Shown here one piece after another: positions 18,001 to 20,693 of a stretch of 51,828 nucleotides of DNA. Position numbers: made by a program. The DNA lies in contig JBCBJQ010000035.1 of the NCBI GenBank assembly GCA_038523235.1, forward strand, positions 1 to 51,828. Reading direction: 5' to 3'. This stretch comes from Cyanobacteria bacterium J06626_4. GTDB lineage: Bacteria; Cyanobacteriota; Cyanobacteriia; Phormidesmidales; Phormidesmidaceae. The stretch's first letter is position 1. Every line of letters starts with the position of its first letter.

Positions 18001-20693
18001 GCCGAATTTCCTTTTTATTGCACTGCTGTTTGCTCACCGCATAAACTTTGCGTCCTGCGATATATTCAGCAGTCTGGGCAGAGACCTGACCCTGCAAAAT
18101 ATCGGTAACCGGGTCGATGCAAATTGCTGGAAATTCAGCAAACGTCACCCGATACCAAATGCCCTTGAGTTGGCGATACTGATGATTAGCATCGATCGCT
18201 AAGACATCGGTCGGGGGAGTGGGTTTTGGCTTCCGACGTTTTTTCTCCACCAGACAAAGCAAGCCTGTTTCTGGATGGACGTAGAAGCGATCGTGATAAC
18301 TACTTACTAGGGGAGCAAAGCTGCCCCACTCTGGCTTTTCATATAGAACACCCTCAATGATTTCGGTGTGCCGAACCACGTCATCCCAGACATGACTGAG
18401 CACATGCTGTCCCGCCAAGGTGTTGGTATTCAACTGGCGGCACAGCTTGCTGTAAACGTCGTTCCAAGGTTGACCGACGTGCGATCGCAAAAACCGTCGC
18501 AGTGGCCCTAAATGATCAGACAAATACTTAGACTTGTCTCTCGGCTTAATCAAATACGGACTGAGTAAGCCATCCTCACTGGCCTCCTGGGTGAGTTTGT
18601 GCAAGCGCTTTTTGACACCCTTCAACTTTCGAGAACTCATCCGCATACCACTCCGAGGACGTTCAATGACAATTTCGCTCAAACGATGCTCGCTCATAGA
18701 TTTGACTGTGCATAAAGTTGGACTGCGATCGTTGGGTTGTGATGCGAAATGACGTCATTGAACTCACCTCCGAGAGAAATTTAGAACTGCAAAAATCGCC
18801 CAAACGCCACAAAGCATTTGGGGTGACTGACGGGACTCTAACCCGCTAATACTGGTGTCACAAACCAGCGCCGCGATCGCTTTGGCTAGCCCCTCCGGGG
18901 CGGCTTCGCCAACAGTCACAGTGGATTCGGTGGGAGTTGAACCCACAACCTCCTGTGTGCAAGACAGGCGCTCTCCCAGTTAGAGCTACGAACCCAAGAG
19001 CAGGCGTGGCAGGAGTTGTTCGCAAAGCGTCTCCGGAGGAGAAACCTACACAGGTCGATTTAGAAGACCGATGCCCTTTCCATTAGGCGACACGCCTATA
19101 TCTGGTAGTCCTGGTAGGAATTGAACCTACAACCTCTCGTTTGTAAGACGCTTGCTCTACCGTTGAGCTACAGGACCACCCAAGCGAGTGATGGGAGTTG
19201 AACCCATGCGCTGAGACTGGCAGACTCAGATGCTACCGCTACATCACACCCGCATTGATTGGAGCGAAAGACGAGATTTGCACTCGTGTCTCCTGGTTGG
19301 AAGCCAGGGATGCTAGCTGCTGCACTACTTTCGCAAATGGGGCTGGTGACAGGAGTTGAACCTGCAACCGACTGTTTACAAAACAGTTGCTCTACCGTTG
19401 AGCCACACCAGCTTGTGGACGCGGGGGTGAGAATTGCACTCACTGATTTGAAGGGTATGAACCTTCCGAGCCACTGTTGCTCCATCCCCGCATACCCCTG
19501 ACAGGAGTCGAACCTGCAACAAACTTGTTTTAAGCAAGCCATGTCTACCAGTTGCATCACAGGGGTTAAGAACCTTAGTTTGACGATGCTAGATTTCAAA
19601 TTGTGCAAATCTAAAATTCAAAATCGTCAATCTAAAATCCCATGGGCTGTATAGGACTTGAACCTATGCACTGCCGCTTAAGAGGCGGCTGCTCTGCCAG
19701 CTGAGCTAACAACCCGTAAAATTGAAAATTCAAAATTTTCAATGCCAGTGGGTCGCCCAGGGGTTGAACCTGGATCTCTCCGCTTAAAAGGCGGCTGTAT
19801 ATCCGCTCTGCCAGCGACCCAGACAAGTGGTACACCGAGCAGGAATCGAACCTGCTATAACGCACTAATCAGGTGCGCGCGTCACCATTTTCGCCTTCGG
19901 TGCTTGAGCCTTCCCATCAACTCCTTGACCCCAAGCAAGACTTCTGACCACTGAATGACATCCTGATTGGTACTCCTACTGAGAGTCGTATGTCCTTCAG
20001 ACAGATTGCGTCCACGCGTCAGTGTCTCCAAAGGAGAAACCCACACGTAGGCTATTTCTAAGGCAGCCGCCTCTGTAGACGGGCAGTCCACAGTTGCTTG
20101 TAATTGGTGTGACCGACGAGAGTCGAACTCGTTAATACTGGTTTCACAAACCAGCCCCGCCACCACTTTGGGTTCGGTCACCATATATTTTGATGAGAAT
20201 GGTCGGGATGGTAGGATTCGAACCCACGACTCCTTGGCCCCAAACCAAGGCTTCTGACCACTGAATTACATCCCGATTGGTGCTCCTGGTAGGAGTCGAA
20301 CCTACACATGAACTGTTTCTAAGACAGTCGCCTCTGCCAGTTGGGCTACAGGAGCATGAACAGGAGGATAGAGCGTGGCTAGGCCACAAGCTCATGCCCC
20401 CCGACAGGGAAGGAAGGAATCGAACCCTCAAACATCTGATTCAAAGTCAGATCGCTTTGCCAATTTGCGTACTTCCCTATATAACGCCGACCAAATCGCT
20501 GACTACACCGAGTAAAGTTGAAACCTTTGCCATAGAAGCGATCTGGCTCGCAGTCTGGTCCTAACTGGACTGGCGACTGCGATCAATGGATGCCGAGGCT
20601 GGATTTGTTCGCGCAGCGTCTCCGTTAGGAGTTACCAGCATCTCCGTGATTCAGAGTCACAGTGACTTTCCAAGTTGTCCACTCGGCAATGAA

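Follow-up and report, generated by a model that had tools for sequence, protein, structure and literature searches.

The array locus and its leucine tRNA genes

The DNA analyzed here is a stretch of 51,828 nucleotides (hereinafter the window) from Cyanobacteria bacterium J06626_4 (contig JBCBJQ010000035.1), in which the following features are found:

15339..16520, minus strand: gene for RtcB RNA ligase, located downstream of the array (PF01139, E 7e-127)
18830..22214, minus strand: long tRNA gene array (L-array, trn-operon type) with 24 tRNAs called by ARAGORN, besides genes that are degenerate or bear inserts
19493..19566, minus strand: tRNA-Leu(UAA), type I, 74 nt, 5-nt variable loop, CCA absent from the gene (ARAGORN)
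About 19968..20092 (approximate limits), minus strand: degenerate third Leu-UAG copy having a short variable loop plus small repeat insertions in the T loop
20278..20355, minus strand: tRNA-Leu(UAG), type I, 78 nt, 6-nt variable loop, encoded CCA (ARAGORN)
20850..21406, minus strand: array tRNA-Ser(UGA), Ser(GCU) and Tyr(GUA), long-armed, serving as internal control
22286..22313, minus strand: TrcR box, 8 bp, three copies (two in array sense, one inverted), upstream of the first tRNA gene
22808..23350, minus strand: HNH endonuclease gene, all8564-like, upstream of the array
23671..23688: a further pair of TrcR boxes, lying upstream of the HNH gene

The 24 ARAGORN tRNA calls are co-oriented and densely packed between 18921 and 22214 (3.3 kb), at least 20 genes being the size at which such a cluster counts as an L-array, and T-loop inserts or signs of decay are seen in several of the genes. 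The TrcR box (motif from PMC10272220) has five matches in the whole window as compared to 0.40 expected, and the three-box site upstream of the first tRNA gene is a probable repressed promoter. Judged by its upstream HNH gene, linked rtcB and TrcR boxes, the locus can be classed as a standard L-array. It shares these features and the array type with the trn operon on plasmid delta of Anabaena/Nostoc sp. PCC 7120, from which it differs in having rtcB adjacent and two intact Leu genes as opposed to four. Silencing of the trn operon and its induction by translational stress have been shown for Anabaena only (PMC8421152; PMC10272220). The window array also holds a miniature tmRNA and a 190-nt tRNA-ended RNA, both of which are less explained than the short Leu genes.

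The initial annotation had described the leucine tRNAs of this array as lacking the long variable arm, and both ARAGORN and Rfam confirm this for the window genes of 74 nt and 78 nt. These are complete cloverleaves with four intact stems and 7-nt anticodon loops, matched over their full length by the Rfam tRNA model at 52 and 57 bits. Neither displays a variable arm of at least 10 nt with a stem, as is characteristic of class II tRNAs; instead, they combine a Leu anticodon, a short loop (5 and 6 nt) and U48 with U8:A14 and a Leu-type D arm (3 bp, 13.A22, A20a, G21), which define type I tRNA-Leu. In the UAA gene (19493..19566), the D arm comprises a 3-bp stem, C13.A22, A14, A20a and G21, accompanied by A15:U48, G18G19 and A73, while the UAG gene (20278..20355) has an identical leucine core and A37. 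They are the only matches in the window to a short-arm Leu pattern, which returned 0 matches in 100 shuffles. The third Leu-UAG copy was missed by both ARAGORN and Rfam and is probably a pseudogene.

Two further genes, a Leu-CAA (positions 243..320; 6-nt variable loop) and an insert-bearing Leu-UAG (positions 325..425; 5-nt variable loop, from alignment), lie on contig C195 and had been assigned to the same array. The genes are real, but as C195 is a separate contig of 537 nt with its own Asn gene, we take it to come from a second array (or strain) rather than from the window array. The 5-nt variable loop initially ascribed to all four genes holds for two of them (19493..19566 and C195:325..425), the remaining two having 6 nt.

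Long-armed counterparts in the host

The housekeeping tRNA-Leu genes of the host had been reported as class II tRNAs of 81–84 nt, and this description is correct:

Contig C4, 61829: tRNA-Leu(UAG), 83 nt, loop 14
Contig C10, 1038: tRNA-Leu(CAA), 82 nt, loop 13
Contig C10, 3791: tRNA-Leu(CAG), 84 nt, loop 15
Contig C145, 9718: tRNA-Leu(GAG), 81 nt, loop 12
Contig C5, 10045..10413: tRNA-Leu(UAA), intron-split, long-armed, 84 nt after splicing

Thus, in a genome that is 99% complete, the host retains five class II Leu genes (UAG, CAG, GAG, CAA and the split UAA) beside the type I genes. The array's own Ser (85 and 84 nt) and Tyr (85 nt) genes, with variable loops of 13–14 nt, are likewise long-armed as initially described.

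Distribution of short tRNA-Leu across cyanobacterial arrays

Of 401 genomes from the phylum, 31 have a match to the short-arm Leu pattern, and a reversed control pattern has none. We assembled two sets of array loci, counting identical array tRNA sequences once. One comprises 28 loci gathered by the pattern search and plasmid matches; it is biased, since part of the Leu D loop is built into the pattern, and 81 of its 88 distinct Leu calls are short. The seven with longer loops include five UAA genes of 9–13 nt and two T-loop-insert artefacts. The other set was recovered using as bait the window's Asn-to-Cys segment, which contains no Leu gene: 20 of its 29 loci have Leu calls, and all 70 distinct Leu are short, with Ser being long in 36/36 and Tyr in 11/13. 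The initial statement that all array Leu are short therefore stands for the bait-found arrays (70/70) but not for the pattern-selected set (7/88 with longer loops); as the array genomes are kin, such counts describe a family and not independent trials. Paired positions in the stems of the short Leu genes number 1227 of 1260, with compensatory changes, and the genes fall into two D-stem sub-lineages, one like the long-arm Leu and the other of the actinobacterial type. In Anabaena 7120, all four Leu genes of the trn operon are short like those of the window (75–78 nt, 5–6-nt loops; systems of PMC8421152 and PMC10272220).

An array match was found in none of the four congeners searched, and this patchy L-array distribution is consistent with horizontal transfer. 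Together with the 31 of 401 genomes and the phage matches described below, it supports the earlier proposal that these class I leucine-codon decoders form a separate set spread by horizontal transfer. In the literature, cyanobacterial Leu loops of 5–7 nt are tabulated without comment (accessible part of PMC6933170). The accessible main text of PMC8421152 has 0 matches for 'Leu' and leaves the short arm unmentioned, and the accessible parts of PMC4810241, PMC4758250, PMC12360207 and PMC10264068 hold nothing on short-arm array Leu. In the literature searched, we found no statement that short tRNA-Leu is the norm in L-arrays, although the 2012 Anabaena cluster paper or published figures may already show these cloverleaves. 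The short-arm form, as well as the A37 discussed below, is under-described for L-arrays.

Leucine identity elements and sequence likeness

Leucine identity in E. coli involves A73, A15-U48, G18G19 and A20a, with neither the anticodon nor the long arm being needed (PMC9976931); A14 is also part of it (PMC6614811, introduction). This complete set (A73, A14, A15:U48, G18G19, A20a) is present in both window genes. Across the bait-found arrays, 60 of the 68 parsed Leu have it, whereas none of the 302 remaining class I tRNAs does (rows without parsable numbering were dropped, reducing Leu from 70 to 68 and the others from 315 to 302), while a cruder parser gave 53/70 versus 0/315. In the host genome, the set is restricted to seven of the 64 parsed tRNAs, namely the four intact housekeeping Leu and the three intact array Leu. 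Neither G3.U70, the mark of Ala, nor G73, that of Ser, occurs in the array Leu of the bait-found arrays (0/70 each). The suggestion in the initial annotation that these tRNAs might be charged with another amino acid is not supported, given the specificity of the leucine set to these genes and the absence of a foreign determinant.

The array Leu had also been described as closer to array Val and Thr than to the host Leu. This is true of whole-molecule identity, by which array Val/Thr rank above the host Leu (8th to 49th of 63), but the relationship is reversed in the D-arm core, where the UAA gene has the four host Leu at ranks 1–4 of 63, and the UAG and CAA genes have them among their top 7. 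It is the acceptor, anticodon and T stems that account for the Val/Thr likeness. Stand-alone short tRNA-Leu, for the most part from Actinomycetota, come closest to the UAG and CAA genes (79% at best, median 73–75%, n = 85 among the matches listed); the identity of these two genes to array Val is 70–73%. A position-weight isotype classifier ranked Leu best in 41/63 under a long-arm model and 31/63 under a stand-alone model, with Val second; it called Val for the window UAG gene under the former and for the window UAA gene under the latter. The existence of two D-stem sub-lineages likely accounts in part for this mixed result. The short array Leu could have originated either through loss of the arm or by recruitment of a class I gene, Val for instance.

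Short tRNA-Leu beyond the arrays

Scanning GTDB genomes, we recovered at least 122 short-arm Leu loci, which are predominantly single genes for tRNA-Leu(UAA) or (CAA), and a scan of a second collection gave at least 119. The titled GTDB records among the matches listed (80) are largely from Actinomycetota. In the complete Herbiconiux and Nocardia chromosomes, the sole UAA match is the short gene, with the remaining Leu genes being long; the short gene is also the sole UAA match in two drafts (92% and 87% complete) from another class of the host's phylum. A loose short-CAA pattern matches 19 of 61 Streptomyces-genus genomes, and the six Streptomyces CAA genes fetched are all tRNA-Leu with a 5-nt loop, five of them with G15-C48. 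Among viruses, 115 phage records match the window UAG gene, and nearly all annotated ones among the 60 listed are tRNA-Leu. Viral loci chosen by pattern yielded, among the matches listed, 150 short genes out of 173 distinct Leu calls, with A73 in 150/150. In both the stand-alone and viral sets positions 14–22 are fixed by the search pattern, so that A73 and U48 alone are free tests. Shigella phage Sf14 has three Leu genes with loops of 5–7 nt; the tRNAscan-SE isotype models rank Leu top for all three, the UAG gene narrowly so (67.4 vs 65.7; PMC12482277).

The stand-alone short tRNA-Leu(UAA/CAA) of Actinomycetota and the phage tRNA-Leu (Gordonia, Streptomyces, Mycobacterium and Shigella Sf14 phages) share their scaffold with the array genes, with up to 79–82% identity among the matches listed. 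They differ in bearing a plain tRNA-Leu annotation in a housekeeping or phage setting, whereas the array genes belong to a stress operon. Hence, class I tRNA-Leu is not new for a free-living bacterium, as had been claimed at the outset: it is published for Streptomyces coelicolor (PMC6614811), the 5–7-nt loops appear in PMC6933170, and stand-alone versions occur in many Actinomycetota. Textbooks and one biochemical paper make the short-arm bacterial tRNA-Leu a Streptomyces rarity. The sequences collected here indicate instead that it is the usual form in cyanobacterial L-arrays, is frequent in phages and has a housekeeping role across Actinomycetota. Given such a wide spread, many LeuRS probably accept the short form.

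Leucyl-tRNA synthetase and published charging data

The type I tRNA-Leu(CAA) of S. coelicolor, with a 5-nt loop, is leucylated by the single LeuRS of that organism (Fan et al. 2019, PMC6614811). According to the same source, the enzyme displays a kcat/Km of 6.25 on type I versus 14.2 on type II, i.e., 44% efficiency, the short loop has to comprise at least 5 nt with nucleotide 48 included, and a knockout of the gene was unobtainable. Like the array genes, this tRNA combines a Leu anticodon and U8:A14 with coexisting type II tRNA-Leu and a single leuS, and the Streptomyces CAA genes have in common with the window UAG gene the A9-GCCC/GGC D stem, C13.A22, A20a, G21 and A73. In contrast, the S. 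coelicolor gene is chromosomal and undeletable with C48 (G15-C48 in 5/6 relatives), while the array genes are redundant and array-borne, with A15:U48 and several anticodons. The Streptomyces type I tRNA is not charged by the LeuRS of E. coli or S. purpurogeneiscleroticus (PMC6614811), implying that not all LeuRS take all short tRNA-Leu.

The host genome encodes one leuS over the family cut-off, at contig C131. A dedicated second LeuRS was considered and rejected, as the other matches are weak, partial and to other long genes, likely those of other class I synthetases. Before the KMSKS motif, the host LeuRS reads R-L-Y-A-T and its Streptomyces counterpart R-L-L-G-K; at the places matching the L732-G733 linker (end of the leucine-specific domain), the host has Y-A and Nocardia Y-G. 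The Herbiconiux LeuRS lacks the whole leucine-specific domain, though the sole UAA match of that genome is short. By these alignments, not every genome with a short gene as its sole UAA match has this linker. The Streptomyces LeuRS has been called the sole prokaryotic enzyme charging both types (PMC6614811), a view that our comparisons suggest is too narrow.

In Anabaena, 23 of the 26 operon tRNAs are aminoacylated in vivo, as seen on acid gels that do not by themselves name the amino acid (PMC8421152). With four short Leu genes and just three operon tRNAs undetected, at least one short Leu has to be charged.

Type I leucine tRNAs as probable spare decoders, and the alternatives

We posit, with high confidence, that the array genes are true type I leucine tRNAs on a horizontally acquired, TrcR-repressed array, which act as spare UUR/CUN decoders charged by the host LeuRS; leucine charging and induction in this organism are parts of this model that we infer. 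The option in the initial annotation that LeuRS charges the array Leu without the arm is supported by the comparative sequence evidence. Under translational stress, TrcR repression would be lifted and the array turned on. The host's one LeuRS would then charge the array Leu with leucine, since bacterial LeuRS recognizes A73 and the D/T core (U8:A14, A15:U48, G18G19, A20a) and ignores the anticodon and arm sequence. The leucylated array tRNAs would thereby supplement the tRNA pool while RtcB repairs cut tRNAs. Because LeuRS needs neither, leucine would be the sole class II isotype free to shed the arm and to vary the anticodon. The variable arm is bound by SerRS and bacterial TyrRS, which would explain why the array Ser and Tyr keep theirs.

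A different outcome, stress-induced recoding, would have the array tRNAs read UUR/CUN while being charged wholly or partly with an amino acid other than leucine, Val being the likeliest, resulting in transient programmed mistranslation. If true, this would be without precedent among stress operons, but the evidence runs against it and we regard it as very improbable. The resemblance of the acceptor and T stems to array Val/Thr, the frequent choice of Val by the classifier and the distance of one anticodon position between Val UAC and UAG/UAA all point towards valine. However, ValRS (C36), ThrRS, IleRS, MetRS and PheRS read anticodon bases that are absent from the array Leu, and the Leu-specific core is retained. 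Recoding via Ala or Ser identity is ruled out by the absent G3.U70 and G73, and an arm for Ser is also wanting. Further, the host keeps five normal Leu genes and has Leu at 112/1000 codons in its long ORFs. In Anabaena, deletion of trcR, which leaves the operon on, cuts fidelity in lacZ reporters (more start-codon leakage, frameshifting and read-through), but the strain is viable, and the accessible part of PMC10272220 does not attribute this loss to the operon. Possible misacylation was raised for the operon Phe and Ile, the only ones with odd gel mobility, yet UUC, the sole codon tested, showed no mistranslation (PMC8421152). Among codon-reassigning UAG tRNAs, the yeast mitochondrial tRNA-Thr(UAG) with its 8-nt anticodon loop and the Ashbya mitochondrial tRNA-Ala(UAG) with G3.U70 (PMC7609411) are like the array Leu in their class I body and leucine anticodon, but carry a foreign determinant where the array Leu have none. 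Moreover, the yeast mitochondrial system lost tRNA-Leu(UAG) (PMC7609411), whereas the host of the window keeps competing Leu genes.

That the short genes are class II tRNAs truncated or mis-folded in calling is scarcely credible. The minimum-energy folds of the bare Leu transcripts are indeed not clean cloverleaves (z -1.2 and -2.0), as is usual for unmodified tRNA, but the full-length Rfam matches and four intact stems speak against such an artefact, and it is refuted by conservation of the short length in 70/70 homologues and in annotated phage genes. We also consider it unlikely that the array Leu are poorly charged by cyanobacterial LeuRS and either divert toxin RNases, as decoys or sponges, or are phage/actinobacterial passengers. 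The T-loop inserts or decay in several array genes would fit this, as would the rejection of the Streptomyces type I tRNA by some LeuRS (PMC6614811), the possible sponge role proposed by the Anabaena authors and the dispensability of the operon for protein-content recovery (PMC8421152). Yet a decoy needs no LeuRS determinants, and 60/68 genes keep them; aminoacylation extends to at least one of the short Leu of Anabaena (PMC8421152). The rejected Streptomyces CAA type is mostly G15-C48, as opposed to the A15:U48 of the arrays, which is the pair that E. coli LeuRS needs, and Herbiconiux has a short gene as its sole UAA match even with a LeuRS devoid of the leucine-specific domain.

A37 in place of G37

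The array UAG and CAG Leu genes have A37 in 24/24 cases, as against G37 in 3/3 of the host NAG genes. TrmD acts at the G36G37 site, which A37 removes. G36G37 is also the cut site of one characterized VapC (PMC6459853), long arms are docking sites for some tRNA toxins (PMC11541572), and phage tRNAs have been proposed to escape host nucleases via loop changes (PMC10264068). As our preferred reason, though one about which we have more doubt than confidence, the arm and G37 might have been lost to evade host tRNA-cutting or -modifying toxins, or to gain independence from TrmD. It is similarly possible, with the same degree of doubt, that through these losses the array Leu became nuclease-resistant, TrmD-independent replacement leucine tRNAs. 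A37 offers a cheap handle on why L-arrays might aid survival, be it through anticodon-nuclease resistance or m1G37 independence. Of 12 long-armed NAG genes at non-host, mostly viral, loci, nine have A37 too; hence, A37 tracks the mobile context as well as the short scaffold.

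Miniature tmRNA and tRNA-ended RNA

Two structured RNA genes are found in the array:

21742-21824 (-), miniature tmRNA of 83 nt, Rfam RF00023
21946-22135 (-), 190-nt RNA gene with tRNA-like ends, defined by its fold

The former scores 52.2 bits against RF00023 in an Rfam search (gathering threshold 47) and comprises the tRNA-like domain (TLD) alone, with G3.U70 and an ACCA end; its 83 nt contain no tag frame. Homologues are present in 19 of the 62 array-set loci searched (two of these from one genome), including that of Anabaena 7120, and the host genome additionally codes for a full tmRNA on another contig (C10:93777-94160). 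A TLD-only tmRNA has been published for phage DS6A, and the same report raises the possibility that such molecules titrate SmpB and thereby inhibit tmRNA (PMC4131195). We posit that ribosome rescue may be tuned by a stress-induced TLD-only tmRNA copy of the cyanobacterial arrays.

The predicted fold of the 190-nt RNA keeps the acceptor, D and T arms of a tRNA, with a 13-nt loop where the anticodon loop would be and a variable region longer by about 100 nt. The ARAGORN call of this segment as an intron-bearing Leu-AAG gene is a mis-call, and no family fits it in an Rfam search. It is conserved over its full length in two further array loci (L171 and L193), in one of which the copy carries a T-loop repeat insert.

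T-loop hairpin repeats

In several array tRNAs, both in the window and on C195, a 537-nt contig of the same genome, the T loop is interrupted by a hairpin repeat some 27 nt long:

19001-19097, 20590-20690 and 20944-21043, array tRNAs with the T-loop hairpin insert, also found on C195
C195:1-537 (L319), Asn and Gln-like genes with inserts, Leu-CAA, Leu-UAG with insert, plus the beginning of a Lys gene

One core motif of the repeat has 17 genome-wide matches, and the repeat is similar to the small dispersed repeats known from cyanobacteria. C195 is a fragment that comes either from a second array or from a different strain within the bin.

Position 37 and the charging of short-armed tRNA-Leu

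The Leu-UAG (20278-20355) and Gln-UUG (20403-20479) tRNAs of the window have A37, while the host isoacceptors have G37. Across the arrays found with non-Leu bait (L169-L197), A37 occurs in 16/16 UAG, 8/8 CAG and 5/11 GAG tRNAs, and G37 in 16 of the 18 Pro tRNAs. A known VapC nuclease cleaves Leu-CAG and Gln-CUG 3' of G36G37 (PMC6459853).

In the published model, type I tRNA-Leu charging requires the leucine-specific domain of LeuRS. Herbiconiux (L161) does not fit this model, because its LeuRS lacks that domain, yet the sole tRNA-Leu(UAA) match on its complete chromosome is short-armed.

Protein genes and variant tRNA genes

Two protein genes separate the array from the RtcB RNA ligase gene, and three tRNA genes that are degenerate or duplicated lie within the array:

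17131-17598 (-), DUF6847 protein gene
17966-18697 (-), basic protein of 243 aa, with no match in a Pfam search
18830-18888 (-), decayed terminal gene
19905-19980 (-), partial second Pro copy
20108-20181 (-), His-GUG-like gene, 48.8 bits in Rfam and absent from the ARAGORN calls

Other loci (L001:7930-8000, L169:1201, L184:2183) share a conserved, short tRNA-like gene whose acceptor stem is weak. Its anticodon is not constant, being CGA in Anabaena 7120 and CAA elsewhere; the Ser or Leu label comes from the anticodon, but both identity sets are missing. One array lineage (L006, L009, L010, L011, L015, L084, L095), with Microcoleus records among its members, has a tRNA-Leu(UAA) with a U-rich variable loop of 9-13 nt, a possible intermediate between the long and short forms.
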